A stretch of 64,000 nt of DNA from the IMG/VR virus record IMGVR_UViG_3300021963_000033; one strand, 5' to 3'. The stretch comes from a virus. Taxonomy: Duplodnaviria > Heunggongvirae > Uroviricota > Caudoviricetes. How positions within the stretch are numbered: position 1 is the stretch's first letter; each line of letters begins with the position of its first letter. The notes beneath the pieces are model-generated. The model was not told the origin of the DNA, did not search any database, and worked only from the letters and a program-made list of their open reading frames with translations. This document shows, piece by piece, positions 939 through 44,624 of the stretch. The position numbers were made by a program, and so were the translations under genes.

Positions 939-967
939 ACTATACCCTAAAACGACAGGAATGTCAA
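939..967 (-). promoter_or_regulatory. early promoter, family member (TTGACA-17-TATAGT)
   Basis: Reverse complement reads GGCTTGACA-ttcctgtcgttttaggg-TATAGT-GGTATTATAGTTTGAAAGG. Confidence 0.6.
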
Positions 968-1133
968 GCCCTCTTTTTCACAAACTTCCATAAAAGATAC
1001 AGCGCTGCTGCACCCAGAAGGTAGGGAAAGATTATAGGGAGGGCAAATATCGTCATGACGAGCAGCGGAAAAATAATCACTGCAAATATGATATACCCTA
1101 CCAACAGCGCGATGAGGAGACAACCAAGTTCCA

Positions 1134-1832
1134 TTATGCCGCAATCTTGTGCTCAGCAAGAAATTTCTTCATCTTTCTCATTCGGTCCATTTCGAACTTC
1201 GTGGGCCAAAAGTCTGCTAATGTCTTGGTCTTATACGTTTGAAATTCTTCAACAATAAACGAAATCATATTTTCATATGAAGTAAGGTCGACGCTCTGCC
1301 CCTTTTCACCAACAAGGATTCCAGATCTCTTATAACACACTTCCTCAACTAATGCGCGAGTTTTCTTGAACATCGCCTTCGTCCGCTCTTCCGGGGAGGA
1401 GTTTCCCTTCGCAATGTTATCTGCTGCCCATAGATATTGCAAGTTCGAAAGATTGTTGTCATGTTTAACGCCATTCATGTGGTCGACATGAATCCCTGAC
1501 CTGGACAAGAAAATACGCTGTTCTTCGGTGAAATTCATCCACTGTTTTTTGGTAAAGCATTTAGGACGAAGTTTCTCCCAGTTGTTATCCTCGATAGCAT
1601 GACCATTAAACGTTTCCTGTAAGCAACGATGAACCGAGGTTTTACTGGTCTTACCGTTCTTCTTATAAGATATCGTAAAGTACTTCTCGTTACCCGAGGG
1701 TTTACATATGTTTTTCCGCGTACCATTTTTGTGGAAAAATTCGCCCAACTCATTTAAATAAAAATCCTGCCGCTCACCATTAATCACAGCAAAACGGTAA
1801 CGGATACCATCCATAATCTTTTCATAAGTCAT
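1134..1832 (-). CDS. HNH homing endonuclease
   Basis: HVDHMNGVKHDNNLSNLQ fits the HNH motif. ATG 1832 has an AAGGG SD and sits downstream of promoter 1862-1890. Confidence 0.6.
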   Translation of the reverse strand: MTYEKIMDGIRYRFAVINGERQDFYLNELGEFFHKNGTRKNICKPSGNEKYFTISYKKNGKTSKTSVHRCLQETFNGHAIEDNNWEKLRPKCFTKKQWMNFTEEQRIFLSRSGIHVDHMNGVKHDNNLSNLQYLWAADNIAKGNSSPEERTKAMFKKTRALVEEVCYKRSGILVGEKGQSVDLTSYENMISFIVEEFQTYKTKTLADFWPTKFEMDRMRKMKKFLAEHKIAA

Positions 1833-1861
1833 GTTATTCACCCTTCGCATAATATACAACC

Positions 1862-1890
1862 ACTATATCTTAAAACGGTAAAAATGTCAA
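1862..1890 (-). promoter_or_regulatory. early promoter, family member
   Basis: TTGACA-17-TATAGT upstream of the HNH gene. Confidence 0.55.
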
Positions 1891-1898
1891 TAGACTAT

Positions 1899-2123
1899 TT
1901 ACATGCTCCAATAGGTTTCGGAGGAAGGGTCGCATGCGAGAGGCGTATTCACGGGAATCTCGATCTCCTTACCGCTCATCAGCGAGGTAACAGTCTTCTT
2001 AGCGAATTGTCCGAGGTAGAATGCCTCGGCGAGAGCATCGCGCTTCAGACGGTGAGCATTGATCATCTCAACATGGTTCTTCATCACGAACCACACACCA
2101 TTCATCTTTTCAACAGTATACAT
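1899..2123 (-). CDS. hypothetical protein
   Basis: ORF with its own family promoter and an AAAAGGAAC SD. Confidence 0.45.
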   Translation of the reverse strand: MYTVEKMNGVWFVMKNHVEMINAHRLKRDALAEAFYLGQFAKKTVTSLMSGKEIEIPVNTPLACDPSSETYWSM

Positions 2124-2154
2124 AATCAAAGTTCCTTTTCACATCTTATATTCC

Positions 2155-2183
2155 AATATACCTCGAAACGTGAGAAATGTCAA
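2155..2183 (-). promoter_or_regulatory. early promoter, family member (subfamily B leader)
   Basis: GCTTGACA-17-TATATT followed by ggaatataagatgtgaaaaggaa. Confidence 0.55.
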
Positions 2184-2197
2184 GCCTCTAAATTACA

Positions 2198-3520
2198 TTA
2201 TCCGAACATTACATGCACACCAACATTTAGCGTGTTCGGTATAATCTGTTGTTCCTGTTTGGTGTAGAGAAAGTCCAGACGCCCATCATTGTTAACATCC
2301 CACATCTCAACACCAGTCCACGCAGAATCCCATGGTGCTCGAAAAGTCTCATCAAACTTAAAGGTCTTACCATCATTGATCAGAATCTTAGTATCAGGCA
2401 TGTATCCAGTTGATACAATATCCAGCAATCCATCACGATTCACATCGGTGACATGGAGTTTGCTGTTCCATCGCTGCTCGCTGATGACAAACTTCTCAAC
2501 TCCAGTCTGCCCAAAAATATAAATCGTAGTTCCACGGTAGAAAGGTTGCTCGGCAGTCGTAGACATCACAATCTCTTTCTTACCATCACCAGTCAGGTCG
2601 GCAATCGAGATATCCGTAACAATCCTCCCAGGAATACTCAGAGTTTGCGTAGCACTATACTGCCCACCGCTATACCGAAGGACAATGCTGTCGACCTTAT
2701 CACCGCCGAGAACTAATTCGGATACTCCGTCAGCGTCTAAGTCGGCGAACTCTGCGGCAGAATATACTGATGCATTCAACCCACTCGCGAAGAGGTCATC
2801 ACGCCTCGTGAAGTTACCACGACCATCGTTTACCAGAAAATACGGTTTCGTCATCGTAGGCGTCCATGCGAGGTTACCGACATAAATGTCAACATCACCA
2901 TCGTTGTCTATATCAGCAATCGCCGTAGAGTGGGTAAAGTCCTTCGTGGTTGGAATATTGGAACTCTTATCACTGAACCCACCGCCAGCGGTGCCAAACA
3001 ATAGTTTATTCTGCCCACCACCAAAGGTTCCTGCATCATATCCTGCATCGCCAATGAATACATCCTTATATCCATCACGATTAAAGTCTGCAATCTCAAT
3101 AGTATCTACTGGCATGGAAGTCGAAACTACGCTGCTCTTTTTAGTGGCAAATACTGTAGAACTGTTGTTCGTCAGACTGTATGCAAACTCTTCACCATAT
3201 ACATCAGGTGCTGTGACATTATTCGGAAAGAATGACTTCAATACTGACAGGTGATTACCAACTGCATAGAATGACTCTATGGTATATTCAAAGGTATACT
3301 TCCCATTGATATTGGTATATGGTATCGTTATCTGAATACCATCAATCTTCTGTGGGACTGAGAATAATGCTGGACCTGCTACCACTACGGGTGGTGTAGG
3401 TGTAGTAGGAGTAACTGGCGGTACAGGTTGCACTGTAATGATAGGAGTACTACCACTACCGCCACCACCACATGCAGTGAGTAGCAGCATTACCATTAAT
3501 GGTGTAAATCTTTTCATCAT
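2198..3520 (-). CDS. FG-GAP/VCBS-repeat beta-propeller lipoprotein
   Basis: Lipoprotein signal MMKRFTPLMVMLLLTAC followed by a G/S linker. At least six DxDxDG-type FG-GAP repeats (DIDNDGDVDIYVGN, DVNRDGLLDIV, DVNNDGRLDF...). GGAGGAAG SD. Confidence 0.6.
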   Translation of the reverse strand: MMKRFTPLMVMLLLTACGGGGSGSTPIITVQPVPPVTPTTPTPPVVVAGPALFSVPQKIDGIQITIPYTNINGKYTFEYTIESFYAVGNHLSVLKSFFPNNVTAPDVYGEEFAYSLTNNSSTVFATKKSSVVSTSMPVDTIEIADFNRDGYKDVFIGDAGYDAGTFGGGQNKLLFGTAGGGFSDKSSNIPTTKDFTHSTAIADIDNDGDVDIYVGNLAWTPTMTKPYFLVNDGRGNFTRRDDLFASGLNASVYSAAEFADLDADGVSELVLGGDKVDSIVLRYSGGQYSATQTLSIPGRIVTDISIADLTGDGKKEIVMSTTAEQPFYRGTTIYIFGQTGVEKFVISEQRWNSKLHVTDVNRDGLLDIVSTGYMPDTKILINDGKTFKFDETFRAPWDSAWTGVEMWDVNNDGRLDFLYTKQEQQIIPNTLNVGVHVMFG

Positions 3521-3786
3521 GCTTCCTCCACTACAGCAAACCCCTTGGCAACTTCACGATGCCTCGCTGCTTGCGCTTTCTTTACTGCCTTGTCAGAGAT
3601 ACCAAGACCTCTTGACCATTCATAGCGGTCGAGTAGCACGGAAACACCATCGGGTGTAGTGTACTCATAGTATACAGGGATGTCAATTAGATCTGCATCC
3701 TGTGCGATCAGTTGGTCCATCGCTGCTGTTTTCTGTGCGACCTCCAGAGACTCTGTGTTGGCCGCAGCAATTTTTTTTCTTGGCAT
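3517..3786 (-). CDS. hypothetical protein
   Basis: ORF with an AAAAGGA SD. Its stop overlaps the lipoprotein ATG (ATGA). Confidence 0.5.
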   Translation of the reverse strand: MPRKKIAAANTESLEVAQKTAAMDQLIAQDADLIDIPVYYEYTTPDGVSVLLDRYEWSRGLGISDKAVKKAQAARHREVAKGFAVVEEA

Positions 3787-3938
3787 TTTGAATCCTTTTA
3801 TATGTGCAGGGTATGTGTCGTGAACTGTTGATCGGTGTTAAACCAAGTCGACGCTAAACCCACTTTATGGAGAGGGGACCCGAGTTTCAAAACCATAGCT
3901 CAAAACTGACAGGGTCTCAACTACTCCTCAATCAACTG

Positions 3939-4172
3939 TCAAACACCACGAGGGACACGCATCAAACGAGTCACATCCTTATCGAGGAAGTCTCCAGTGG
4001 CACTCCACACGCGAAACGCGACACATTCAGTCATACGCATCGCACATTCATTCTCGCGTGCACATCCATCACACGGAATTTCTCGTGCATTCTCAGGGAT
4101 TGGGAGAAGGATCTGCGAGTGAGTGCATGGATCACTCATGAATTCATTGTCAAAACCTATCATGTCCATCAT
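3939..4172 (-). CDS. hypothetical Cys-rich (zinc-binding?) protein
   Basis: AAAGGAG SD before ATGATG. Several CxxC-like cysteines. Confidence 0.45.
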   Translation of the reverse strand: MMDMIGFDNEFMSDPCTHSQILLPIPENAREIPCDGCARENECAMRMTECVAFRVWSATGDFLDKDVTRLMRVPRGV

Positions 4173-4372
4173 ACTGCTTCTCCTTTACGAAAGTTTACAC
4201 GGTCTTCGATCTCTTTACGCACCTCTGGGTAACGTGCCATCAGTGAGAGCAGGGTGGACTCGAAGTATCCAGCGGCATATGCCATACGAGCATTACCAAT
4301 GTCCTGAGGAATTGCATCCTCCACGAGGAACTGGGTAAGATCGGCATCAGTCATGTTAGCAGTTGTATTCAT
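4169..4372 (-). CDS. hypothetical protein
   Basis: ATG at 4372 with an AAGGAA SD; the MRKG extension in the ORF track is the translated leader. Promoter 4400-4427 lies upstream. Confidence 0.5.
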   Translation of the reverse strand: MNTTANMTDADLTQFLVEDAIPQDIGNARMAYAAGYFESTLLSLMARYPEVRKEIEDRVNFRKGEAV

Positions 4373-4399
4373 CACGTTTCCTTTTCTCATCATATTACC

Positions 4400-4427
4400 A
4401 CTATACCTGAAACTGGAGAAATGTCAA
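4400..4427 (-). promoter_or_regulatory. early promoter, family member
   Basis: GGGGCTTGACA-16-TATAGT. Confidence 0.55.
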
Positions 4428-4651
4428 GCCCCTAAATTATCTAAAACATGACAAATAATTTGCTCGAAGTCATCATCAGGATGGAGGTGAGGATGGTCGA
4501 TCACGACATCATTGTAGATGTCAGCGACATACTCAAAGATTTCCTTACCATTAGTTCCATTGATGCAGTCATAGATGTAATCGAATACATCAACTGCCTC
4601 AGTAAGTCCAATGTGGACCTGTTCTTCAACTGTAATCATTTCCATAATCAT
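4424..4651 (-). CDS. hypothetical acidic protein
   Basis: AAAGG SD 9 nt before ATG 4651. Confidence 0.45.
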   Translation of the reverse strand: MIMEMITVEEQVHIGLTEAVDVFDYIYDCINGTNGKEIFEYVADIYNDVVIDHPHLHPDDDFEQIICHVLDNLGA

Positions 4652-4652
4652 A

Positions 4653-4937
4653 TTATAATACCTTTCCATCGAGGATAAACTTACCATTGTCACCGTGCAC
4701 CAGGATGCCATCATCCATCATCACACGCAGAGGAGCAGCACCTGCTTCCATCTTGGCAAAGTAGTCAGCAGGGGTATAGTGCTTCACCAGTGCCTTCAGG
4801 AACTTCGCCTTGGTCACTGGACCACGATGCTTGAAGCGAGCGACGAACTTCCGTCCTTCCCAGTAGTTATCAGCATGGGGTTGGAAGTATACCGAATCAC
4901 CGCTGGTAACCAAATTTTGCTTCGTAAAAGTAGTCAT
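4653..4937 (-). CDS. hypothetical protein
   Basis: ATG 4937 with an AAAGG SD. Promoter 4965-4992 lies upstream. Confidence 0.5.
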   Translation of the reverse strand: MTTFTKQNLVTSGDSVYFQPHADNYWEGRKFVARFKHRGPVTKAKFLKALVKHYTPADYFAKMEAGAAPLRVMMDDGILVHGDNGKFILDGKVL

Positions 4938-4964
4938 AATCAAAACCTTTCAAACTATAATTCC

Positions 4965-4992
4965 AATATACCTGAAACTGCAGTTTTGTCAA
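4965..4992 (-). promoter_or_regulatory. early promoter, family member
   Basis: GGGGCTTGACA-16-TATATT followed by GGAATTATAGTTTGAAAGG. Confidence 0.55.
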
Positions 4993-4996
4993 GCCC

Positions 4997-5158: not shown

Positions 5159-5191
5159 AAGCTTTAGTTCCTTTTCATATACGACATAGTC

Positions 5192-5220: not shown

Positions 5221-5230
5221 GCCTAAAACG

Positions 5231-5861: not shown

Positions 5862-6020
5862 TTACTTTACTCCCTCGAACAGTTCATCTAGTGCTTCATT
5901 CTTCGTACGTTTATCGAACCATGCACGGACATCTTTCTTCACATAATCTTCATCGACTTGTTTCTTAGCATCTTCCCATCTTGCTTGATCAGATTTATTA
6001 TACCATAGTTGCCGTGACAT
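5862..6020 (-). CDS. small protein, ALDELF(E)GVK C-terminal family (paralog A)
   Basis: 52-aa ORF ending ...NEALDELFEGVK. Its GGAG SD is encoded by the C-terminal codons of the upstream paralog. Confidence 0.5.
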   Translation of the reverse strand: MSRQLWYNKSDQARWEDAKKQVDEDYVKKDVRAWFDKRTKNEALDELFEGVK

Positions 6021-6230
6021 CTATTTTACTCCAAACAGTTCATCTAGTGCATTTTGCTTAGTTTTTTCATTAATATATTCAATATCCCATGTTGCCTGAT
6101 CACGGGAGTGTGGTGCGACTGTAATCCAATCTTTGCTATTATATACTTCAATCATTTGTGTATCAGGATTGTATCTCATGTCACCCATCTTTGGAAGATG
6201 TTCATTCATTTGGTCATTCCATACTATCAT
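6021..6230 (-). CDS. small protein, ALDELFGVK C-terminal family (paralog B)
   Basis: ORF ending ...QNALDELFGVK. Confidence 0.55.
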   Translation of the reverse strand: MIVWNDQMNEHLPKMGDMRYNPDTQMIEVYNSKDWITVAPHSRDQATWDIEYINEKTKQNALDELFGVK

Positions 6231-6391
6231 TTGTTTACACCGAACAGTTCATCTAGTGCCATTTCTTTCTCGAATGGAATAACATATTCAAATTTATCCT
6301 TCCATGCAGACAGTTTAGCATCATCATTCAGTATATCATACGTCCATTGGTCGATTTGCTTCTTCAGTGCATCAGCGTAAGTGTCACCCAT
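6227..6391 (-). CDS. small protein, ALDELFGV C-terminal family (paralog C)
   Basis: 54-aa ORF ending ...EMALDELFGVNK. GGAGGTGA SD; ATGA overlap with paralog B. Confidence 0.5.
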   Translation of the reverse strand: MGDTYADALKKQIDQWTYDILNDDAKLSAWKDKFEYVIPFEKEMALDELFGVNK

Positions 6392-11001: not shown

Positions 11002-11704
11002 TGTTCTCTCCTTTAAGTAAAATGATATTATATTCTGTTTTTAGAATGTCAAATGTTTCTTCCCAATTAGAAACTGTATGCAACTTATCTGCCTCTAATG
11101 AGATAGTATGATCATTGCCACCAAATTCAGTTTTGTCACCAAAGAACACGAACGGTTTTATGTCATTCGCGATCTGACTCTTATCTTTACCTTTGAGGTA
11201 AATATCAAGTCCAGTTTCTCCAGCAACCGTAGCTTCTAGTCTAGGAAACTGGTTAGTAATCAATTTTGCTAGATTGTGTCTCTCATTGATAGCATTATCA
11301 TATCTAATGTATGATTCTCGTTGCTCACGATTGGCACCGCGACCAACAATGCTAAAATTACAAAGTCCCAACCGCATTTCAATGTGTTGTCCTGTTCTCT
11401 CAGGATATGCACTCGATCGCAATAAGGTTTCTAGGAATTGATTTTCTTCTCCAGTCAACTCGAATGAATTGGCATATACCTGATTCCCTTTGACGTAGAG
11501 AGCATTGCCAGCACAACTATACACACCAGCAACGCTCTCACAAATCTCAGTACCAAGTTGTTCTAATGTTTTGGCGCAGTCACTACCAGAAACAAGATAA
11601 ACTTTATTCTGCTTAATGAATTCTAGGAACCAACTAGCAAATTCAGGATCAACTCGCTGTCTGCTAGGTGTTAATGTCCCATCTACGTCAAAGGCAAAAT
11701 TCAT
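10988..11704 (-). CDS. HAD-superfamily phosphomannomutase, eukaryotic PMM type
   Basis: FDVDGTLTPSRQ (DxDGT), LVSGSDCAKTLEQLG and FFGDKTEFGGNDHTI closely resemble eukaryotic PMM1/2 motifs. Length is 238 aa. Confidence 0.65.
   Translation of the reverse strand: MNFAFDVDGTLTPSRQRVDPEFASWFLEFIKQNKVYLVSGSDCAKTLEQLGTEICESVAGVYSCAGNALYVKGNQVYANSFELTGEENQFLETLLRSSAYPERTGQHIEMRLGLCNFSIVGRGANREQRESYIRYDNAINERHNLAKLITNQFPRLEATVAGETGLDIYLKGKDKSQIANDIKPFVFFGDKTEFGGNDHTISLEADKLHTVSNWEETFDILKTEYNIILLKGENNVLD
11025..11052 (-). promoter_or_regulatory. promoter-like (TTGACA-16-TAATAT), weaker family member
   Basis: Lies inside the 3' end of the PMM gene, upstream of the AhpD-like gene. Confidence 0.4.
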
Positions 11705-12267
11705 TATAACGTGTCGCCACCGACTGCACGGTTGCAGGCACAGAGTTCACCAGTCTGCAGTGCATCAAGAATGCGCAGAGTTTCTTCAGGGTTACGACCA
11801 ACATCAAGGTTGTTCACAGTGACATGCTGAATAACATTGTCAGGGTCGACGATGAATGTGGCACGCAACGCAGCACCTGCTTCGTAACTGAACACGCCGA
11901 GTTGTTCGCACAAACTCATGTCGCTCTCAGCATAAAAATCAGAACGTGCTGTATCAGCAAACATCCATGAGGTAGTCTTCTTGAGATCTTCATGGGCATT
12001 CTTCCATGCCAACTTACAGAACTCATTGTCAGTCGAACCAATCATCAACACCGCATCACGGTCATCGAAGTCACTGTTCAACTTGTCATATGCAACGATT
12101 TCAGTTGGACATACGAACGTGAAGTCCTTTGGATAGAATACAATTACCTTCCACTTACCAATGAAAGTAGTTTCATTGATTGTTTGGAATGCGTTGTCAG
12201 GTGTCAGTGCTCCTGGTTTCACACCAGTGACTGCAAATTTCTTTAGTTTATAACCGATAGTCTTCAT
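11704..12267 (-). CDS. 2-Cys peroxiredoxin (AhpC/TSA family)
   Basis: FTFVCPTEI peroxidatic Cys motif plus a C-terminal resolving Cys (GELCACN). Start reassigned to ATG 12267 with a GAGGAG SD. Confidence 0.7.
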   Translation of the reverse strand: MKTIGYKLKKFAVTGVKPGALTPDNAFQTINETTFIGKWKVIVFYPKDFTFVCPTEIVAYDKLNSDFDDRDAVLMIGSTDNEFCKLAWKNAHEDLKKTTSWMFADTARSDFYAESDMSLCEQLGVFSYEAGAALRATFIVDPDNVIQHVTVNNLDVGRNPEETLRILDALQTGELCACNRAVGGDTL

Positions 12268-12271
12268 TTTA

Positions 12272-12436
12272 TTACTCCTCAATTAGCGGGATTGTTGTTG
12301 CTTTAGTTTCCCAAATTTCTTTGCCATTTTTCATACCGATGAAAGACTTTTCTTCAATCTTCATGATAATACCACCATCTTGGCGATGATAGTAGCGTCG
12401 TTCTTCTATACGAATCAAATTCAATTTCTCAGACAT
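12272..12436 (-). CDS. hypothetical small protein
   Basis: ATG 12436 with an AAAGGAAC SD. Confidence 0.4.
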   Translation of the reverse strand: MSEKLNLIRIEERRYYHRQDGGIIMKIEEKSFIGMKNGKEIWETKATTIPLIEE

Positions 12437-13326: not shown

Positions 13327-13541
13327 TATTTTACTCCAAAAAGTTCATCAAGCGCAGTCTGCTTGTATGCGTCTGCCATGTGGTTATTCAGCGCATCACC
13401 TAGATTTTCAGCGTAGTCATCCAGAATGACAACATCTGCTTTGTGACCACGGAGTCCTCTGTTTTGCATGTGTTGCGACCAAGTGTAATTCTTCAAATCT
13501 CTCCATGGATTATTTACAAGAAAATCATCTTTGCTATTCAT
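13326..13541 (-). CDS. small protein, ALDELFGVK C-terminal family (paralog, distant copy)
   Basis: Ends ...KQTALDELFGVK, the same C-terminal motif as the genes at 5862-6391. Confidence 0.5.
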   Translation of the reverse strand: MNSKDDFLVNNPWRDLKNYTWSQHMQNRGLRGHKADVVILDDYAENLGDALNNHMADAYKQTALDELFGVK

Positions 13542-17166: not shown

Positions 17167-17371
17167 TATTCAGTTCCTTCAGTTTTTTTACGATTTCAAT
17201 TGCATCAATAAGTTTGAGTGTTATCGACAACATGGTGCCAGCAACAAACCAGATAAGAAACACCATCTCACCGATGTGCTCGCCTGCAATGAAAAACTTG
17301 GCAGCAGCATACAGCAGCGCGAATAGGAATCCTCGGATTGCATTCTCTACAAGAAATCTAGAGATTAGCAT
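17156..17371 (-). CDS. small membrane protein
   Basis: Two TM helices. Confidence 0.4.
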   Translation of the reverse strand: MLISRFLVENAIRGFLFALLYAAAKFFIAGEHIGEMVFLIWFVAGTMLSITLKLIDAIEIVKKLKELNNDH

Positions 17372-17634
17372 GTTGCGTACTTTGGTTCATAAATGTCACC
17401 TGTCAATTGATTATGGAATTTGTGGACATGCTTGCACTTACCGTGAAATGAGAATCCAGGACAGTCACACTTCCACCCACGATCTGTGAGTTCACTGTGA
17501 TAATCCTTACCATTACAGTTTGTATATGTCCACACAAAACCTGTGTAAAATGATTTTTTGTAATTGTATCCTGGAATCTTCAGGACTTTGTCCCACTTGG
17601 AACGGCGAACTTTTGGGTTTCTTCTATCAGTCAT
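17365..17634 (-). CDS. SWIM-type zinc-finger protein
   Basis: WKCDCPGFSFHGKCKHV gives C-x-C-x10-C-x-H. The ATG lies only 7 nt from the -10 of promoter 17641-17669. Confidence 0.5.
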   Translation of the reverse strand: MTDRRNPKVRRSKWDKVLKIPGYNYKKSFYTGFVWTYTNCNGKDYHSELTDRGWKCDCPGFSFHGKCKHVHKFHNQLTGDIYEPKYATC

Positions 17635-20630: not shown

Positions 20631-20684
20631 TCATTATTAGTATAATACGCTATTTTTCAGCATTTGTCAATAGATTTTTGAAAT

Positions 20685-31564: not shown

Positions 31565-32362
31565 TTACTTAACGTTTACGATACCCTTGAAGTCGTAAGG
31601 AACGATAATGGTAGAAACCTTACCTTCCTTAACTGCTTCCGCGATTGTCACAAGAGCAGTCGCTTCCATGTATTTAGTAGCACCAGCGTTGGCATTAAGA
31701 GCAGCAATACGTTCTGCTTCCAACTTCGCGGTACGAACCTCTACCAACTTCTGCTTCTCAGCATTTTGTGCCTGAACAAGTTGGTTAGCAGACGCTACGA
31801 TACTCGCAGCAGGTTTTACCTGACGAACAAGAACCTGCGAGATCGAGATAGAACCATCGAGTTTCTCAGAGGCAAGTTGCGCTACAATCTCTTGGCGAAC
31901 CAATTGCTCAATCTCAGCACGATTGTCTGCCATCTTCAATGACTCGTAACGACGAGCAACCTTGTAAGCAGCATTACGACCCAACTGACGAATGTAATTA
32001 TACATCAACAGTGTATCGCCTTCTTCGGTTTCAGCGTGGAAACCACGATTCTTTTCTACATAGATTTCAGCAGCACTAGTTGGATTGATCGAGTAGATTA
32101 CTGACATATCAAAGTCAGCAACAGTCGAGTTATCAGCAGCAAGTGGTGTCAAATCAGTTACATCAACCTGCACGTCCTTGGTAGGAAACGTCAAAACATC
32201 ACCGAAGATGGTTTGGTTCAGAGATCCTGGTTGTAGTTCGGTGGTTTCAATCTGCTTGTAAGCATCACGACGAACACCAACTTCACCAGTTTCAATACGA
32301 GTACAGGCAGCAGTGGTTGCCATCAGACCAGCGAGAAGAACGACTTTAGTAACACTTTTCAT
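31565..32362 (-). CDS. SPFH/band-7-like lipoprotein
   Basis: Start reassigned to MKSVTKVVLLAGLMATTAAC (lipobox) with an AAGGAA SD. The C-terminal Ala/Glu-rich helical region resembles SPFH proteins. Confidence 0.45.
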   Translation of the reverse strand: MKSVTKVVLLAGLMATTAACTRIETGEVGVRRDAYKQIETTELQPGSLNQTIFGDVLTFPTKDVQVDVTDLTPLAADNSTVADFDMSVIYSINPTSAAEIYVEKNRGFHAETEEGDTLLMYNYIRQLGRNAAYKVARRYESLKMADNRAEIEQLVRQEIVAQLASEKLDGSISISQVLVRQVKPAASIVASANQLVQAQNAEKQKLVEVRTAKLEAERIAALNANAGATKYMEATALVTIAEAVKEGKVSTIIVPYDFKGIVNVK

Positions 32363-33218: not shown

Positions 33219-33260
33219 ACTAGTCTCCTTATACTAGTATTTATATTTTTAGAGCATTTA

Positions 33261-36806: not shown

Positions 36807-36882
36807 TGGTGGAGAATAACGGGATCGAACCGTTCACCTTCTGCGTGCAAGGCAGACGCTCTACCGAATGAGCTAATTCCCC
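36807..36882 (-). tRNA. tRNA-Ala(TGC)
   Basis: Loop CTTGCAC; canonical arms. Confidence 0.7.
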
Positions 36883-38038
36883 AACGAAAAAAACTTATTA
36901 GAAGAATGCACTGGGTTCCAGAACCTCCCGTATTAGTGACGGGCAGTGCACTCATCTAATAAGTCTTTGTAAACCTTGAGATTACAGGTTTAATTGAGTG
37001 CCTTTGGACCGTACCGACTTCCTTGCGAGAAGTGTTAATCCTTTATCCACTAAAGTCCTTGCGGATTCTCTAGTATCACTCAGTGCTGCCTTTTTTGAGG
37101 TCTGGCGTTTGACCTATCATGCTACGCTATTCGTCCATCATTCTCCCGTCTGCCTTGCGAGCAGTTCGGTTCCGCTAAGAACCTACGTCTTCACTTCGAA
37201 CAACCACTTCATCCTTGCGAGAATCCGTGGACCCAATTCACTTTCGTGTCAGGTATTAAGCACCTTTCACGTAGCACTGGAGCAGTCTTTCGCTTTTATA
37301 TACAAACCAGGAATTGAACCTAGATCGACAGTTTAAGAGACTGTTGCTTTACCTTTAAGCAATTTGCGAACCTACCAAGAAGTGCTGCTCCAGCAGATCC
37401 ATACCTTGTTAGATACAGAATACCACACTCCTCATGTCTTTCGTCTTGCGGACTAATCAACCATGCTTCAAGTCTCCCCTCATCGGTTTAACTTTTGCAT
37501 TGCCACCTTGCCTTTTCACGCGAATGATCAGACTCAATGACTATCCGTTAGTATTCAGCACTCATAGGTTTGGTTCGATACAGTTAGACCACCACAGTCT
37601 ATTAGAACTCACCGACCGGCTCTGTTCGTATCCTTTCGGACTTATATCACCTACTTACTGCCTACTGCCATTCAACTGACAGGGGATGCTTTCGTCACAG
37701 GTTTTACCCAAATGCAACGAGTCATCCCTAACTCGGACTTGTATAGATAGACCATCACTGGCGCAGTTACGTAGGAGTCCCTGCTTTGGCCACATTACTG
37801 TGGTTATCTTAACGACGCTATACCGCCATTCCTATTTTTCTACTATACCCTAATACTAGGGAAAAGTAAATAGATTTTTGAAATTATTTTCAAAAAACTT
37901 TTAATGAACATAATGGCAACTGAGGTGTCGACACGCTACTGTCGGTAATTTCGCTCTTTACGTTCCTATCATAGAGCGATGAGAACGCATTCTCAACCTC
38001 CCCCAATCACTTGGTCGCCACAGGAACTTCCATTATAT
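36883..38038 (-). ncRNA. ORF-free structured region inside the tRNA array; candidate large ncRNA or degenerate tRNA-like elements
   Basis: No credible ORF on either strand. At least five copies of CCTTGCG(A/G) (37022, 37047, 37153, 37213, 37443) plus two more at 36556-36580. tRNA-like 3' domain at 37300-37344 and tRNA-like 5' domain at 37700-37745. Strand assumed from the neighbours. Confidence 0.3.
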
Positions 38039-38758
38039 TCAAACTCTATTAAGTCTATCTCTACAGATATCTAATGCTTTATCGTTTATGTCACAACCTA
38101 TAAACCTTCTTTTCAAGATTTTGCTAGCAACTAAAGTTGTGCCTGAACCCATAAACATATCCAATACAATACCATCATTTGGACAAGACGAATCTATTAT
38201 AGGATATAATAACGCTAATGGTTTTTGCGTAGAATAACCTACTCTTTCTGTTTTATCATTTTGCCCCAGCATAGGAATATTCCAAACATCGTCAAGGACT
38301 TTACCAGCTTCATTATAATATTTTTCTTTAGCATACCCTCTCGGAGCAGTAGAAGAATAAGGTTGGCGTATGTATTTAGAATCTACGTTGAAGAAATAAT
38401 TATCTGACAAGGAGTATCTAAAAATTGTATCGTGCCTTTTACCAAAGTCTTTCTTTTTCCTTGGAGCAGAGTTATAATGCCATATAATTTCATTTCTAAA
38501 ATTATCTTTACCAAAAATCTCATCCATGTTAAGTTTCATGCTGTGTGATATATTATAATCGCAATGTATGTATATTAACCCCGTTGGTTTCAATACACGT
38601 TTGCACTCTAACAAAATTGGAGTAAAGTCTATGTCTATAGAATCGTCATAGTCCTTGAATTTGTTTCCCGTGCCGAACGGAACGTCTGAATAGATTAGAT
38701 CAATACTATAACTTTCTATATTAGAAAGAAAGGATAAAGCATCACTATGGTATATCAC
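38039..38758 (-). CDS. beta-class DNA N6-adenine/N4-cytosine methyltransferase
   Basis: Motif IV variant DLIYSDVPF (DPPY-like) near the N-terminus and motif I MFMGSGTT near the C-terminus, as in N6_N4_Mtase enzymes. Confidence 0.65.
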   Translation of the reverse strand: MIYHSDALSFLSNIESYSIDLIYSDVPFGTGNKFKDYDDSIDIDFTPILLECKRVLKPTGLIYIHCDYNISHSMKLNMDEIFGKDNFRNEIIWHYNSAPRKKKDFGKRHDTIFRYSLSDNYFFNVDSKYIRQPYSSTAPRGYAKEKYYNEAGKVLDDVWNIPMLGQNDKTERVGYSTQKPLALLYPIIDSSCPNDGIVLDMFMGSGTTLVASKILKRRFIGCDINDKALDICRDRLNRV

Positions 38759-39242: not shown

Positions 39243-39318
39243 TGGTGCCCCCACGACGACTCGAACGCCGGACCCCCTGCTTACAAGGCAGGTGCTCTAC
39301 CAACTGAGCTATAAGGGC
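39243..39318 (-). tRNA. tRNA-Thr(TGT)
   Basis: Loop CTTGTAA; canonical D-arm. Confidence 0.7.
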
Positions 39319-39722
39319 AGAGATTGATTTTCTAGCAACCAACCTTTGTTGGCGCCTCTTCCTTTGCCTTTGTTTCTACCTTTAAACGAAGGTGTTTGAC
39401 TGTGACAATTTGGACATATCAATCGTAAATTTTCTGGAATATTGTTATATGGATCGCCATCAGTATGATCAACTTCAAGATTGATAGGCATACCCAACCA
39501 ACTATCTATTCCACAAACTGAACAGTTATCACCAAATTCGCGTTTAAGATTTGTTTTTAGGCAACCCTTTCCGATTGTCCCTTCTCCACGCTTCCACGCT
39601 TCATACTTCAATATGCTCTGGTGAGTTTTCTGGCAAGAATTACTGCAGTATTTTCCTGCAGTATTTTGCTTCTCTTCGACCTTACCACAATGAAGGCATT
39701 CGGTGATATTTTTAATTCCCAT
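39309..39722 (-). CDS. HNH endonuclease with N-terminal zinc ribbons
   Basis: LEVDHTDGDPYNNIPENLRLICPNCHS is the HNH motif. The C-terminus overlaps the tRNA-Thr 5' end by about 10 nt. Confidence 0.6.
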   Translation of the reverse strand: MGIKNITECLHCGKVEEKQNTAGKYCSNSCQKTHQSILKYEAWKRGEGTIGKGCLKTNLKREFGDNCSVCGIDSWLGMPINLEVDHTDGDPYNNIPENLRLICPNCHSQTPSFKGRNKGKGRGANKGWLLENQSLPL

Positions 39723-39780
39723 CTTATTTATTCCTGCTAGGTAGACCTGCTTTTATTTATAAGATAGGTATTTTTAGAAA

Positions 39781-39960
39781 CTTATTTAATCTACCCTGCC
39801 CATGAGCGAATTTCGGAGTCGGTTGCAGCCGTCCTAAGCCATTGCTAAGGTTAATTAAGGACTGGTGCGATGGCCCACCCAATCCGTAGTCTATACGTCT
39901 ATAGTACGCTCTCCCCTTAGCAGGGTAGATTAAATAAGTCTCGAAAGACTTATTTTATTC
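39781..39960 (+). ncRNA. candidate structured small RNA or MITE-like element
   Basis: Perfect 19-bp inverted repeat (CTTATTTAATCTACCCTGC / GCAGGGTAGATTAAATAAG) encloses 120 nt with internal hairpins. Followed by a plus-strand terminator hairpin AATAAGTCTCGAAAGACTTATT plus TTTTATTC. Confidence 0.35.
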
Positions 39961-40030
39961 TAACAATGTCAAAGAACTGAAACTTTATTTATACACTCTA
40001 CTATACTTTTTAGAGAAAGTCAAGTGTTTT

Positions 40031-40328: not shown

Positions 40329-40706
40329 TTATTCCGATAACCACTTAGCGATCGAACCATATTTCAGGTTCAGTTCGTTCTCGAGGATTTCGAGACCGTA
40401 GTGGTCGAACTCTCTTGCGGTGATGCCTTCTGCTTCAGCGATAATTTCGATTGCACGCTCACGAGTAGCATTCGTTGCTGCTACGCGAGCAGTAAACTTG
40501 AGAAAGTTGGACGCCTGACGATCCTGCTCATACGCGATCTGCTTGTCGAGTTTCAATGAGAGATACTCGAAGTCTGCATCGAATGCTTCGACCGACTCAA
40601 ACGTAGGATTATACGGACGGCATCCATAAACTTCCTTGTAGAGATCAGAATAGATGCTTGCATCTTTCGAACCAGTGGCGGCATTAATATCACGAAGAGT
40701 CAACAT
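40329..40706 (-). CDS. hypothetical protein
   Basis: ATG 40706 with an AAAGGGAA SD, downstream of promoter 40735-40763. Confidence 0.5.
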   Translation of the reverse strand: MLTLRDINAATGSKDASIYSDLYKEVYGCRPYNPTFESVEAFDADFEYLSLKLDKQIAYEQDRQASNFLKFTARVAATNATRERAIEIIAEAEGITAREFDHYGLEILENELNLKYGSIAKWLSE

Positions 40707-40734
40707 AATCAATTCCCTTTCAAACTATAATACC

Positions 40735-40763
40735 ACTATACCTCGAAAATGCGAAAATGTCAA
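40735..40763 (-). promoter_or_regulatory. early promoter, family member
   Basis: GGGGCTTGACA-17-TATAGT followed by GGTATTATAGTTTGAAAGGGAA. Confidence 0.6.
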
Positions 40764-40786
40764 GCCCCTAAATTATTTTTTTAAAA

Positions 40787-41290
40787 TTAATCTCGCGGAC
40801 GATATGGGTCATATTTCATACCCCACAACCACCCTCCTGGCAACGTGAAAGTCAGAGGGTCAACAAGGTGGCATTTACCATTCGGTTCAACGCACCACTT
40901 GCGACGCCTCATACTTGCCTTGATTGCCATGAGTCGGCGAGTTTCCCAAGTATGCCTTCTAGCATACATCGGATTACCATCCCTGCGCCTAGTTCCCCGC
41001 ATGGTTCGACTTATCGATGCTTTATGCTCTGGTGTTAAACCACCCCAACAGGGATTCTTTTCACCAGTTAGTGCTTCTGAAATCTTTTTGCGAGTCTCAG
41101 GACTATGTCCTGCAGATTTCTTTCGGGTAACTTTATCAACAATCGTCAAACCTTTTCCGAGGACTTCTGCTTTATCTCGGAGGATTTCTATCTTGCTGTT
41201 TTGTAGCAAGAGTTCTCTTGGTTTCGGAACCTTGTTTGGATCATTGACAATCCATAGTTCTTTCTTATGTTGAAATAGAAAGAACCTCAT
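40787..41290 (-). CDS. NUMOD3-repeat homing-endonuclease-like DNA-binding protein
   Basis: Three NUMOD3-like repeats (SPETRKKISEALTG, TPEHKASISRTMRG, TWETRRLMAIKASM). No catalytic motif recognised. AAAGGAACGG SD. Confidence 0.45.
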   Translation of the reverse strand: MRFFLFQHKKELWIVNDPNKVPKPRELLLQNSKIEILRDKAEVLGKGLTIVDKVTRKKSAGHSPETRKKISEALTGEKNPCWGGLTPEHKASISRTMRGTRRRDGNPMYARRHTWETRRLMAIKASMRRRKWCVEPNGKCHLVDPLTFTLPGGWLWGMKYDPYRPRD

Positions 41291-41675
41291 TCACCGTTCC
41301 TTTATCCAGTAGTGTCAGATTATGTTCGCGGTCAATATACTTGAATTCAACATGATGCGGTTCAAATTCTGCTAGAGCAGCAAATACATCAGCAGTATTA
41401 AGAGTGCTGCAGGTATACACATCCAGTTGCATTAGAGCAGGGGAAACCTCATCCCAAACATGCATGGCAATATGCGATGTTTCGATAATGGTAACTGCAG
41501 TCAAACCACGGTTACCCACCATGTCACTGTAAACAGCATATGGACCCATTAGTATTTTCATACCAATTTTGTCAACTAGAGTTTTCATCCAATCCTGGAT
41601 TGCCTCTGCGCATTGTGGCGGATTGTTTAGTTCTGCTCGCACAATGAGATGCTTGTGCTCTAGGATTTGCCCCAT
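41265..41675 (-). CDS. speD: S-adenosylmethionine decarboxylase proenzyme (SpeD, class 1a)
   Basis: IIETSHIAMHVWDE matches the pyruvoyl-site motif ESH(I/L)..H.W.E. Length is about 136 aa. Confidence 0.6.
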   Translation of the reverse strand: MGQILEHKHLIVRAELNNPPQCAEAIQDWMKTLVDKIGMKILMGPYAVYSDMVGNRGLTAVTIIETSHIAMHVWDEVSPALMQLDVYTCSTLNTADVFAALAEFEPHHVEFKYIDREHNLTLLDKGTVNEVLSIST

Positions 41676-41709
41676 CGTTGTTCCTTAACTTGAGGTGGAA
41701 AGAATTTAT

Positions 41710-42216
41710 TTATAAGGTCGCTGAAGATTTTTTTGGCGACTTCTTCTTCTTAACCTCTGGTGCTTTCCAACCTGTCAAGAAACTTTCAAGAACTTCCGCG
41801 AGACGAGGATATGCTTCGAGCAAAGTTTGATCCTTGATATGATCAAGCAACTTCGCTTCTTTAATCTGCACACCCTGACATGTCTGCATCCAGATTTCTT
41901 CTCGGCGGAACTGCGGGACTCCCTTCGCAGTGCCTTCTGGCAACAGAGTTAAAATGCGACGGAACTCCTGTGTGATGGTTGTATCTGCCATGTTAGATGG
42001 CAGACCTTCATCCTTATATGGAGTTGGACCCTCGGGAAGATTGTATGGACCTTGCTCATAACCAACACCCCATGCAACAAATCGCATGAGAACAGAATTG
42101 CCGATGGAGATTGCTCTCACACGTTCGCGCAATTCGTCAGTTGTTTCTGCTGCACATGCCCAGTCAAGTGCTTCATCAATTTGTTTAAATTTCTTGGGTG
42201 CTAGTCTTTGTGCCAT
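41710..42216 (-). CDS. hypothetical protein
   Basis: 168-aa ORF. Confidence 0.5.
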   Translation of the reverse strand: MAQRLAPKKFKQIDEALDWACAAETTDELRERVRAISIGNSVLMRFVAWGVGYEQGPYNLPEGPTPYKDEGLPSNMADTTITQEFRRILTLLPEGTAKGVPQFRREEIWMQTCQGVQIKEAKLLDHIKDQTLLEAYPRLAEVLESFLTGWKAPEVKKKKSPKKSSATL

Positions 42217-42230
42217 TTCAAGTCTTTCTT

Positions 42231-43112
42231 TTAAAATTCATCTACGAGGTCAATCATCTGCTTCATACGATTAGCGATAAAATAATTCAACAGACCTGAG
42301 CGATCTCCGCCCAGTTGTTTCTCATAGTTATCTATAATCGCTACTTTGATGTCCTCAGGAATACGCGACAAGTCAACCAGTTCACGGTTGCGCTGGAAGT
42401 TCCGCCACATTTCATCACTGGTGATGAAGTCTTCGGGTTTTTGCGTTTTCCAATCAGCAAGTTTATCTTTACGTATAGGACGTTGACGTTGCCCATTAAT
42501 AAACGTGTCATCATCAGAAAGAATATTGGGAACACCGTCACCCTTATCGCCCATGATAATATGTTCCATTAGAACTGCTTCAGGCGATTCCTTCAACTTA
42601 CAGAACTTTTTCTGAACAGGAGCATACTGTTTAACATTGCTCCACTTCTGTAGTTGCTGGAAGTCATGGTCGCCAGATAGAACAAGGAATGGTTCAGCAC
42701 TAGGCATGAGACCATCGGTGTTCATGGTCTGACTATACTCGGCGAGCACTGCGATAACATCATCTGCCTCGGCACCATCAACGTCGATTACAGGATACGG
42801 GAAGTGATCTTGTAACTCACTACGAATTTGGTGCAGTGCTTCGAAGATAGCAGACCAGTCAAACCCAGACTCCTGCCGTGCTTTCTTACGATTCGCTTTA
42901 TAGTTAGGGAAATACTGACGACGCCAGTAGTGACGATTGTCGCAAGCAATCACAATGTTGCCGAACTCAGCACCAAACTTCCGCTTATATGAACGAATGG
43001 CATTGATGATCATGTGTCGAATTAAAGGTAGGTTTACCTCCACATCGCGGCGACCACCAAGTTCTGCCATCATGCTGCTTATAGCAGTCTGGTTGAAGTC
43101 AACAACAATCAT
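42231..43112 (-). CDS. rnh: RNase H / FEN-type 5'-3' exonuclease (T4 rnh-like)
   Basis: Acidic catalytic clusters including FLVLSGDHDFQQL (SGDKD..QL-like) and IDVDGAEADDVIA. Confidence 0.65.
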   Translation of the reverse strand: MIVVDFNQTAISSMMAELGGRRDVEVNLPLIRHMIINAIRSYKRKFGAEFGNIVIACDNRHYWRRQYFPNYKANRKKARQESGFDWSAIFEALHQIRSELQDHFPYPVIDVDGAEADDVIAVLAEYSQTMNTDGLMPSAEPFLVLSGDHDFQQLQKWSNVKQYAPVQKKFCKLKESPEAVLMEHIIMGDKGDGVPNILSDDDTFINGQRQRPIRKDKLADWKTQKPEDFITSDEMWRNFQRNRELVDLSRIPEDIKVAIIDNYEKQLGGDRSGLLNYFIANRMKQMIDLVDEF

Positions 43113-43444
43113 TCTTCTTCACCTTTAGTAATAGTCAACGCTTCACGAACATCATTGAGCATGTTAATTTCTGGGCAATCAACACCTGCTTGCCGCATGT
43201 ATAGACCAGTGATCATGACAGCGAGTACTGCAGCATCTGAATGGAAGTTCTCGTTCTTAAGACCAACCTTTTTCTCTGCTGCCAATAGAATACCACGCAA
43301 ACAAGCACCCGCAAACGCTTCAGCATCCTGATATGCAGCATATTCTGTTGCACCCTCGAGGAAATAACTCAAAGATTCATTATCGATAGTCTTAAGAGTT
43401 GCATTACGTTTGATGTAGGTGACATTATCATTATTATCTGGCAT
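43109..43444 (-). CDS. hypothetical protein
   Basis: ORF with an ATGA overlap. Confidence 0.45.
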   Translation of the reverse strand: MPDNNDNVTYIKRNATLKTIDNESLSYFLEGATEYAAYQDAEAFAGACLRGILLAAEKKVGLKNENFHSDAAVLAVMITGLYMRQAGVDCPEINMLNDVREALTITKGEEE

Positions 43445-44568
43445 TAAAACACTTTCAATATTAAAGTAGTTGGAGTCAGTCGCGCACGAACTGGTGCACT
43501 CTTACTCTTAACGGCTGAGTACCATTTTGTCAAGTCATTTTTCTTCAACTCAGAAAATTCTTTTACTTGAATTTCTGGTTTGCGAAGAAGTCGCGAGTTA
43601 GAGAAGTTCTCATCAAACCCAACAAGACTCGCACCCTTGACAGTGATGCTTCCGCTTACTGGACTGAAGTACTTGGAGATCTTTCGCGTCTTAGTATCAA
43701 AAGTCCACACTTCACTGCAGTTTAGTAGGTTGATAGGTTCAACACTGGTAATACCAAGTGCAGTATCTTCCTTAAGGAACTTTAGATTCTGAACCAACTT
43801 GGACTTATCCTTTGGTTTCTTCTTACGAACCTTAGCAACCTGCTTGCTGACATATGACTTCTTAAGGTCGCTGACATAAGACTCGAGCAGTTTAACAATA
43901 TCTTTGACAGACTTCATACTCGTCAGATGTGAATAACTCTCGAGTAACTGTTCTTGCGAATCAGTCAGTTGAGTCTTAGATAGACGACGAACTTCTACAA
44001 GTTCAGCAAATTCTGCAAGGATAGGTTCAATCTTCTGCACGCAGTCAAGATAATTCTTATCCGACAAACGATACGGCATTAGAATCTGGGCAATGTTACG
44101 AGTATCCTCGCCATTGATCAGTTTCTCAATCTCATCGTCAACATCAGATACGACGAACGCAGATGCAACCAGTGGTTTCTTGACTACCTTGACAACAGGG
44201 TCAGGAGCAGTTGTATCATCTTCGATGAGAACAGTTTTCTTACTTACTCGTTCTTCAACCTTTTCCCAGATGCGCGCTTTATGCTCGTCATTGAGAGGGA
44301 ATCCACGCATAGCGATACGGGCACAGTTGGCATATGTCCGAGGAAGCATCTTGTCAGACAACTGACTGATTGCTTTGAGTTTGGTAGCATCGCCCTTGAA
44401 CCAGTCAACAAGAAACGCACGGCAATCTTTCTGGTCAACGATGAAGTTATACCAATTCAATGCCTTGCCGAATTCTGACTGATAATCCTTGGGCACATAA
44501 TCTTCAACCCAAATTGGTTCTGTGCCCATAACTTTAGATTCGGCAACGGGAACTTTCAATTTATACAT
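43444..44568 (-). CDS. hypothetical protein (374 aa)
   Basis: Start reassigned to ATG 44568 with an AAAGG SD, downstream of promoter 44596-44624. Confidence 0.5.
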   Translation of the reverse strand: MYKLKVPVAESKVMGTEPIWVEDYVPKDYQSEFGKALNWYNFIVDQKDCRAFLVDWFKGDATKLKAISQLSDKMLPRTYANCARIAMRGFPLNDEHKARIWEKVEERVSKKTVLIEDDTTAPDPVVKVVKKPLVASAFVVSDVDDEIEKLINGEDTRNIAQILMPYRLSDKNYLDCVQKIEPILAEFAELVEVRRLSKTQLTDSQEQLLESYSHLTSMKSVKDIVKLLESYVSDLKKSYVSKQVAKVRKKKPKDKSKLVQNLKFLKEDTALGITSVEPINLLNCSEVWTFDTKTRKISKYFSPVSGSITVKGASLVGFDENFSNSRLLRKPEIQVKEFSELKKNDLTKWYSAVKSKSAPVRARLTPTTLILKVF

Positions 44569-44595
44569 AGATTCGCCTTTCTTCATAATATATCC

Positions 44596-44624
44596 ACTAT
44601 ACTATAATTTGTTGGAAAAGTCAA
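44596..44624 (-). promoter_or_regulatory. early promoter, family member
   Basis: GGGCTTGACT-17-TATAGT. Confidence 0.55.

Follow-up and report, generated by a model that had tools for sequence, protein, structure and literature searches.

What are the almost identical promoter-like repeats that stand before gene after gene in an uncultured phage, and why do the copies resemble each other so closely? The question arises from a stretch of 64,000 nucleotides (nt), referred to here as the window, in IMG/VR record IMGVR_UViG_3300021963_000033, which derives from a metagenome assembly. A first-pass annotation had noticed 19 copies of a unit with sigma70-type −35 and −10 hexamers, conserved flanks and two leader types that run into the Shine-Dalgarno (SD) sequence, and had read them as early promoters for the host polymerase, with a near-invariant leader that could be a shared regulatory RNA or a protein target. 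The sequence comparisons indicate that the copies form a genuine and well-delimited family of cassettes that combine an early promoter with a translation start, with about four weaker copies beyond 21 strong ones. In our assessment, the cassettes probably function as host-sigma70 early promoter and translation-start units of a T4-like phage and, in addition, as junctions for the exchange of gene modules. The latter aspect had been missed: in relatives, the cassettes exchange parts and mark the borders of swapped gene modules.

Allowing at most one mismatch, the string GGGGCTTGACA occurs nine times in the window, always on the minus strand, against 0.73 occurrences expected from shuffles. A scan of the whole window with a position-weight matrix derived from the aligned sites confirmed the family, with 21 minus-strand sites at or above 25 bits, 26 at or above 10 bits and none on the plus strand at the latter threshold; in 200 shuffles, the mean number of sites at or above 10 bits was 0.39 and the mean top score was 9.1. 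Under leave-one-out scoring, the 21 sites kept 17.7-44 bits, and the score fell to −16 at 11025 and to 6.5 bits at 20670. An independent repeat search recovered the cassettes as direct-repeat families (D1, D2, D5, D7, D8 and D13); among all repeats of at least 28 nt in the window, there was no inverted pair.

The 19 coordinates given in the first-pass annotation are all correct, each being the last base of a −10 hexamer on the minus strand. Eighteen of these sites, one of them marginal (5499), indeed form one family, but the site at 11025 is a generic one that lacks the family flanks. The set was also incomplete: a loose scan for TTGACA-N16-18-TAnnnT revealed additional copies that share these flanks and whose −35 begins at 45132, 40023 and 32457 and, more weakly, at 20670, and a weaker copy at 37870 and a degenerate one at 52359 had been missed as well. 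Because the copy at 45132 belongs to the family, the extent of the latter reaches to about 45141 rather than 44624.

An information profile and a MAFFT alignment reveal the anatomy of the cassette. Across 23 aligned sites, TTGAC and TA...T do not vary, and the spacer measures 17 nt in 18 and 16 nt in two of the 21 family copies (the 16-nt generic site at 11052 being left out). The upstream part consists of an A/T-rich, perhaps UP-like stretch (5-10 positions preceding the −35, with 0.3-0.6 bits per position), a GGC block between this stretch and the −35, directly before TTGAC(A/T), and TTT just after it, with C at −36. The spacer has a variable core of 5-6 nt that is followed by a semi-conserved TTT(C/T)(G/A)AGG block, and the −10 region reads G, then TA(T/G)A(G/A/T)T, then GG. 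The spacer motif TTTCGAGG, which had been described as frequent, was counted in five family spacers and in the degenerate copy at 52359.

Most copies are followed by an open reading frame (ORF), and the distance from the −10 to the start codon is then 6-33 nt, except for 66 nt in P32457 (cassettes are named by the coordinate of the −35 start). Transcription is predicted to start about 7 nt after the −10, which would give a 5' untranslated region (UTR) of about 20 nt; the leader is purine-rich, and the SD sequence is mostly AAAGGAA. Between 1 and 45 kb, every clean intergenic gap of 51-80 nt is a cassette that extends from a stop codon to an SD sequence and ATG. In nearly all copies, the stop codon of the upstream gene lies between 26 nt before the −35 and the inside of the −35 itself; it is the TGA within TTGACA in five cases and the TAG within TTTAGGGGC in several, so that the last residues of the upstream proteins are dictated by the promoter. 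All copies are co-oriented on the coding strand, with P40023 and P37870 located upstream of non-coding RNA and the tRNA cluster. Both the sequence and this context, namely co-orientation and placement directly upstream of start codons, support the original reading of the repeats as sigma70-type promoters. At two loci, P17669 and the degenerate cassette before the primase gene, the ATG follows about 7 nt after the −10, so the respective mRNAs may be leaderless.

The leaders fall into discrete types. The type A core ATTATAGTTTGAAAGG is present in five copies (six for a 14-nt core) and the type B core AATATAAGATG[AT]GAAA in four, with one additional B-like copy, P4427. Thus, the cores of the two types proposed in the first-pass annotation do recur, but the strings exactly as written there are found only twice (A) and once (B). 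Its explanation of the spurious N-termini MRKG and (M)EYKMRKG holds: these are translated type B leaders. The proposed shared regulatory RNA, in contrast, is not supported, given that there is no conserved leader structure: RNAalifold detected no common base pair across the 21 cassettes, transcripts predicted for either leader type are no more stably folded than shuffles (z −0.3 to +1.5), and no cassette has a match in Rfam. Furthermore, because AAAGGAA-N-TTGATT-ATG is found also at several genes without a promoter, part of the 'invariant UTR' may be the usual translation-start context of this phage, and the cassette-specific part of the leader appears to comprise only about 14 nt between the −10 and the SD sequence. 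The type A leader additionally holds a second exact TATAGT at about −1 to +5; this was ruled out as a tandem promoter because it stands 28 nt from TTGACA, with GCATTT at the 17-nt position.

A scan of IMG/VR for GGCTTGACA-N17-TATAGTGG yielded 52 loci, of which about 25 are relatives at 72-93% nucleotide identity. These relatives have the same cassettes, which within a locus are always confined to one strand, and orthologous cassettes usually retain their leader (identity 0.9-1.0). Recombination footprints are nevertheless apparent. Within the window, each of four multi-nucleotide spacer types (TTTCGAGG, TTTTAGGG, TTTTATAG and GTTTCAGG) occurs with both leader types. Two relatives, L034 and L045, match a third, L003, through the P40763-type promoter up to TATAGTGG, then agree in every one of the next 31 nt with the leader of the paralogous P2183, and finally return to the gene orthologous to that of P40763. 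In another relative, L046, a gene for a 238-amino-acid N6/N4-type DNA methyltransferase that is absent from the window (plus strand, about 11698-12392 of that locus; ORF start at reverse-complement index 1739) lies between two copies of the P16403 cassette. These copies are the same over 47 nt, the otherwise variable spacer included, and their outer flanks match the single-copy locus of the window. The window encodes a methyltransferase of its own in the tRNA cluster (38039-38758), which is only 25% identical to the one in L046. Breakpoints of synteny between the window and L046 fall within cassettes in 7 of 21 cases, compared with a local expectation of 6.4% (p=2e-4), and those between the window and L005 in 4 of 5 (p=3e-4). 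At P2183 and P8176, the homology with L046 ends exactly at the junction between the −10 and the leader; crossovers in RB49 mini-circles have been mapped to the same zone, between the −10 and the ATG (PMC2839356).

The cassette sequence appears to be restricted to the lineage, with nothing to indicate a host origin. A blastn search of 50,697 phage records with the P40763 cassette (E≤1) gave no match, and the 25-mer comprising the type A −10 and leader has none in 185,579 bacterial species genomes. A looser pattern of flank and hexamers retrieved only two unrelated generic promoters from bacterial genomes, without homology to the window.

The phage itself appears to represent an uncultured freshwater lineage that is known so far from metagenomes alone (one European Nucleotide Archive assembly and many IMG/VR contigs), and 20 kb of the window found no nucleotide match by megablast in the same 50,697 phage records. 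All genes of the window are on the minus strand. Apparently, the phage is T4-like, as suggested by a gp61-type primase, T4 RNase H, a tRNA cluster and late-promoter motifs. The primase matches 2,430 phage records, among which the named matches and the tallied organisms are T4-like phages; the closest match is that of Pelagibacter phage Mosig, with 40% identity, and cyanomyoviruses come next. T4 RNase H domains, including the C-terminal one, are present in the ORF at 42231-43112, and the window also encodes NrdA/B, ThyX, dCMP deaminase and 22 tRNA genes. The T4-type late-promoter motif TATAAATA occurs seven times, where chance would give 2.4 occurrences; six of the seven are on the coding strand, and the motif stands 19-31 nt upstream of four start codons (58615-58622, 41707-41714, 39754-39761 and 33238-33245, minus strand).

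Full-strength cassettes are all found within 0.9-45.2 kb, among small genes, and none between 45.2 and 64 kb. Among the 20 downstream proteins scanned, 14 had no Pfam match at E≤0.01, and only two cassette-proximal proteins reached the curated Pfam cut-off (an fn3_3 match and an SPFH/Band 7 protein, Band_7); the product of the P1890 gene has a weak HNH match below the cut-off. By analogy with T4-type genomes, the segment from 0.9 to 45.2 kb is a hyperplastic region that consists mostly of ORFan genes.

The explanation we favour is that unmodified host RNA polymerase would fire all the cassettes right after infection, and that these would drive the tRNA cluster, the small genes (mostly ORFans) and probably the GOLLD RNA described below. 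The similarity of the copies would have two causes, namely selection for maximal strength of the promoter and the translation start, and homologous recombination or gene conversion between copies. Such recombination would mix spacer types with leader types and would create junctions for the insertion, deletion and replacement of modules. Early transcription by the host RNA polymerase is the standard reading for sites of this kind in T4-like phages (PMC1524935; PMC2988021) and, by this analogy, probably applies here. Several points weigh against this explanation. Activity, timing and transcription starts are all inferred from matches to consensus sequences, and an E. coli-like specificity of the host sigma70 is an assumption. 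Known contacts of sigma70 do not account for all of the conserved extras (GGC, TTTCGAGG and GG). Orthologous cassettes are 90-100% conserved, which is only slightly above the 83-94% of the flanking coding sequence, and two thirds of the L046 breakpoints are outside cassettes, some of them between tandem paralogs (D12); moreover, the enrichment test is generous, given that breakpoints mostly lie between genes in any case. Finally, the capsid, portal and gp55 genes lie outside the window, so that the label 'T4-like' rests on replication genes and the late-promoter motif.

Given the conserved extras, the sites could instead be promoters for a polymerase redirected by the phage, that is, middle-class promoters dependent on an activator or sigma factor of the phage that reads GGC, TTTCGAGG/TTTTAGGG and GG. 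The 3' half of the spacer and the flanks are indeed conserved beyond the hexamers, which plain sigma70 does not require, and T4-type phages are known to re-programme sigma70 (PMC2988021). However, the hexamers equal or nearly equal the sigma70 consensus and have the optimal 17-bp spacing, whereas T4 middle promoters have a MotA box for the −35, and T4 early promoters possess extra consensus regions yet use the host polymerase (PMC2988021). Additional, if weak, evidence is that no phage sigma factor, AsiA or MotA was seen in Pfam and PHROG overviews of the 108 window proteins (top 25 families listed) or in targeted scans, and we consider a redirected polymerase quite unlikely. It is very unlikely that the copies are alike through independent selection for promoter and ribosome-binding strength alone, with no real role for recombination. 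The most conserved positions do have known functions (hexamers, C at −36, GG discriminator, T-A start context and SD sequence). Such selection would not account, though, for neutral spacer interiors that are common to specific copies, for the identity of the two P16403 copies in L046 over 47 nt, or for a 31-nt leader in L034 that is that of a paralogous cassette and not of the ortholog; together with the occurrence of spacer and leader types in all combinations, these observations already contradict it. That the repeats are small mobile elements, or elements of the repetitive extragenic palindrome (REP) or miniature inverted-repeat transposable type with incidental promoter-like hexamers, is hardly credible, even though they are numerous, short (about 60-90 nt), intergenic and tied to insertions and deletions between relatives. 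The distribution over both strands that the first-pass annotation had tied to transposon or REP-like elements was not found: there is a single orientation with no plus-strand copy and no inverted pair of at least 28 nt. The repeats keep a fixed register with downstream start codons and upstream stop codons, and the type A 25-mer and the P40763 cassette are unmatched in the bacterial and phage collections, respectively.

A further possibility, compatible with the promoter role, is that the conserved leader serves as operator to a post-transcriptional regulator encoded by the phage, either a RegA-like repressor binding between the SD sequence and the AUG or a RegB-like nuclease, which would shut off the early set together. 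RegA recognizes unstructured, A/U-rich sites overlapping the AUG (PMC3014915), and the leaders here are unstructured. At the start codon, TTG(A)TTATG is found in 6 of 15 cassette genes compared with 2 of 90 other genes (p=7e-5). The start-codon stretches AAUUGUUAUG and UUGAUUAUG of cassette genes resemble the optimum that SELEX gave for T4 RegA, and AAUUGUUAUG, at P16403, matches 10 consecutive bases of this optimum, aaAAUUGUUAUGUAA (PMC3014915). However, the enrichment is explained equally by common descent of the cassettes up to the ATG, similar spacers between the SD sequence and the ATG stand at several promoterless genes, and the RegB motif GGAG is absent from most cassette SD sequences (AAAGGAA). 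RegA is not among the top 25 families listed for the window and was not seen in targeted scans of window proteins, and no search was aimed at regA or regB in the lineage. In T4, regA adjoins the polymerase and clamp-loader genes. Genes of these types were found neither among the listed window families nor in the 12 kb by which the relative L021 reaches past the left end of the window, which contain a phosphoesterase, PHROG matches to queuine tRNA-ribosyltransferase and glucosyltransferase, and unknown PHROGs. On balance, we regard an operator as unlikely. Equally tentative, and perhaps slightly less probable, is the notion that the leader types are exchangeable regulatory modules, acting either through the second TATAGT of type A, by pausing, or through the RegA-like stretch between the SD sequence and the AUG (AAUUGUUAUG/UUGAUUAUG). 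At lambda PR', a −10-like element at the corresponding position causes sigma70 to keep the polymerase paused close to the promoter. If either mode of action were true, early genes would be controlled after initiation via the leader, and gene-conversion swaps such as those in L034 and L045 would move a gene between control classes.

Returning to the favoured reading of early promoters that double as recombination junctions, the closest described entity appears to be the promoter-early stem-loop (PeSL) cassette, known from the pairs RB49/phi1, PST/T4 and nt-1/KVP40. PeSLs stretch from the stop of the upstream gene as far as the SD sequence and ATG, are enriched in hyperplastic regions and mediate the insertion, deletion and replacement of ORFans; the RB49 promoter is a near-perfect TTGACA-N17-TATAAT (PMC2839356; PMC4122927). 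Like PeSLs, the cassettes are composite elements that lead from the upstream stop through an A/T-rich stretch and a sigma70 promoter to the SD sequence and ATG, and they are concentrated near ORFans in a hyperplastic region. They are located at the borders of insertions, deletions and replacements; in one case, two copies of the same cassette enclose a gene, and crossovers lie in the interval from −10 to ATG. A GGGC/GGGGC block by the promoter is reminiscent of the RB49 stem, namely its G-tract half, and of the GGGC motif discussed there, but the GGGG block of the present cassettes has no CCCC partner. The defining stem-loop or terminator is likewise missing as a common feature: a terminator-like hairpin with a T-run is present directly upstream of only 2 of the 21 copies, P5220 and P34244, and strict membership among the PeSLs is rejected on this ground. 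The present cassettes differ also in their tighter gaps, often with the stop codon inside the −35 hexamer, in a leader from −10 to SD that comes in discrete, exchangeable types, and in their occurrence in an uncultured lineage from metagenomes with only about 40% protein identity to any isolate. Thus, the cassettes seem to work like PeSLs without being strict members of that class.

Early promoters with an extended consensus number in the dozens in T4-like genomes, where they precede novel ORFs and tRNAs (PMC1524935; PMC2988021). The parallels to these T4-type early (Pe) promoters include many co-oriented sigma70 promoters with a consensus beyond the hexamers, placement upstream of small novel ORFs and tRNA genes, and coexistence with TATAAATA late promoters. 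The −35 is the canonical TTGACA, as in RB49, whereas that of T4 is GTTTAC, and there is no TGn extended −10 but AGG before the hexamer and GG after it. T7 PA1 and lambda PL have been named as comparable strong phage promoters (PMC2988021). With both of these, the cassettes would share near-consensus hexamers, optimal spacing and use in outcompeting host promoters at the start of infection. The T5 early promoters, further very strong coliphage early promoters, have the same properties, but in all these cases there are a few individual promoters and not a family of about 20 copies with common flanks, leaders and recombination junctions.

The pattern is already known in T4-type phages, and the finding opens no new class of mechanism. 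What it does is extend the shuffling of modules by promoter cassettes, known from a few cultured phage pairs, to environmental phages, and suggest that the stem-loop is not needed. For annotation, the cassettes show which start codons are the true ones, and spurious N-terminal extensions of the MRKG type are thereby eliminated; they also delimit the genes that probably make up the early set of an uncultured T4-like lineage. For engineering, they offer a natural set of compact, putatively very strong promoter and translation-start parts.

The individual copies, all on the minus strand and scored in bits with the position-weight matrix, can be grouped by their leaders. Those with a type A leader include the top scorer, P40763 (40707-40772; −10 40740-40735, ATG 40706; 46.1 bits), at the ortholog of which relatives have other leader types, and P16403 (16349-16412; −10 16380-16375, ATG 16348; 43.7 bits), the cassette duplicated around the methylase gene in L046. 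The same type is found in P967 (913-976; −35 967-962, −10 944-939, ATG 912; 42.9 bits), in P8176 (8119-8185; −10 8153-8148, ATG 8118; 32.9 bits) and, with a 16-nt spacer, in P4992 (4938-5001; −10 4970-4965, ATG 4937; 35.5 bits). Also of type A is P34244 (34189-34290; −10 34221-34216, ATG 34188; 41.8 bits), where the hairpin at 34290-34257 follows upstream tRNA genes.

Type B leaders characterize P2183 (2124-2192; −10 2160-2155, ATG 2123; 43.5 bits), which has an ATGTGA variant, P22913 (22854-22922; −10 TAGAAT 22890-22885, ATG 22853; 43.4 bits), P40312 (40256-40321; −10 TAGAGT 40289-40284, ATG 40255; 42.2 bits) and P12971 (12916-12980; −10 TAGAGT 12948-12943, ATG 12915; 41.6 bits), with the upstream TGA in TTGACA. 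The B-like P4427 (4373-4436; −10 4405-4400, ATG 4372; 44.4 bits) combines a 16-nt spacer with an upstream TGA in TTGACA. A perfect TTGACA-17-TATAAT is present in P10486 (10428-10495; −10 10463-10458, ATG 10427; 41.8 bits), and TTGACT serves as the putative −35 in P14679 (14617-14688; −10 14656-14651, ATG 14616; 41.6 bits) and P44624 (44569-44633; −10 44601-44596, ATG 44568; 41.8 bits), the latter with the upstream TGA inside the −35. P1890 (1833-1899; −10 1867-1862, ATG 1832; 35.7 bits) precedes the 232-amino-acid HNH-like gene, and P17669 (17635-17678; −10 TATTAT 17646-17641; 36.8 bits) is followed by the ATG at 17634 of an 89-amino-acid ORF (17365-17634). P5220 (5159-5266; −10 5197-5192, ATG 5158; 33.7 bits) is PeSL-like, with a hairpin at 5266-5233 directly upstream, and the marginal P5527 (5474-5536; −10 TAGAAT 5504-5499, SD AAGGAG, ATG 5473) scores 31.8 bits, or 24.3 when left out of the matrix.

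Among the copies added here, P45132 (45104-45141; TTGACA-17-TATAGT; 32.3 bits) has the TTTTTAGGC flank without the family leader and lies inside a 322-amino-acid ORF (44884-45852). P32457 (32363-32466; TTGACT-17-TATAGT; 27.5 bits) leads through its 66-nt leader to the ATG at 32362 of the SPFH/Band 7 gene, and P40023 (39995-40038; TTGACT-17-TAGAGT; 25.7 bits) overlaps TATAAATA and is followed by a structured non-coding stretch, an HNH ORF and tRNAs. The weak copies P20670 (20610-20685; TTGACA-17-TATTAT; 16.6 bits) and P37870 (37842-37885; TTTACT-17-TATAGT; 23.6 bits), the latter upstream of GOLLD, have the upstream flank AATTTCAAAAATCTA in common (D13). The degenerate cassette with the −35 start at 52359 (52325-52368; D7; 10.3 bits) consists of TTTACT, an N17 spacer with TTTCGAGG and TATAAC, and the primase ATG at 52324 lies about 6-7 nt past its −10. 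The generic sigma70-like site (11002-11057; TTGACA-16-TAATAT), without family flanks or leader, has a leave-one-out score of −16.2 bits.

Gene modules around the cassettes vary among the relatives. Four small ORFs that share a conserved 38-nt 3' end (D12; 5866-5903, 6022-6059, 6231-6268 and 13327-13364) make up a small paralog family, and L046 lacks the window segment 5895-6225, which spans D12 copies. Two HNH-type endonuclease-like ORFs (1134-1832 and 39309-39722, minus strand) each belong to a module that some relatives lack, with window positions 970-2153 replaced in L046 and 39330-39778 absent in L003. Both ORFs look like free-standing insertions of the homing-endonuclease type beside family promoters.

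The more unusual items of the window also stand beside the promoter family, among them a strongly structured RNA without family assignment and a complete GOLLD RNA whose promoter is likely of the family type. The structured stretch, at about 39775-39942 (minus strand; within 39760-39990), lies just downstream of P40023 and folds at −73.6 kcal/mol, compared with −51.3 +/- 4.7 for shuffles (z = −4.74; 0 of 200 as stable), with a predicted 24-bp closing helix around a multibranch core; it has no Rfam match even at E≤1. The relative L010 lacks window positions 39330-39929 entirely, and L003 keeps the structured part without the adjacent HNH ORF.

The full-length GOLLD RNA (RF02032, 196.8 bits, model positions 1-416 of 416) is located at 36973-37433 on the minus strand, inside the tRNA cluster, and has a tRNA-Lys(ctt) (37298-37370) embedded in it; GOLLD forms RNA-only multimeric complexes (PMC12286853). 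Because the −10 of P37870 ends about 410 nt upstream of the Rfam match, this weak copy is the likely GOLLD promoter, and the predicted transcript would be about 860 nt long, at about 37835-36973. In the window, manA RNA is not detected anywhere at the gathering threshold, nor in 37820-38120 at E≤10, which rules out the stretch 37895-38045 as a manA candidate. Four relatives do carry a full-length manA RNA (RF01745, 62-70 bits; L008 1567-1736, L015 324-493, L024 835-1004 and L031 99-268), which adjoins the ortholog of the window tRNA-Ala (36807-36882); the window has GOLLD beside that tRNA-Ala, and the two RNAs appear interchangeable at one spot in the tRNA cluster.

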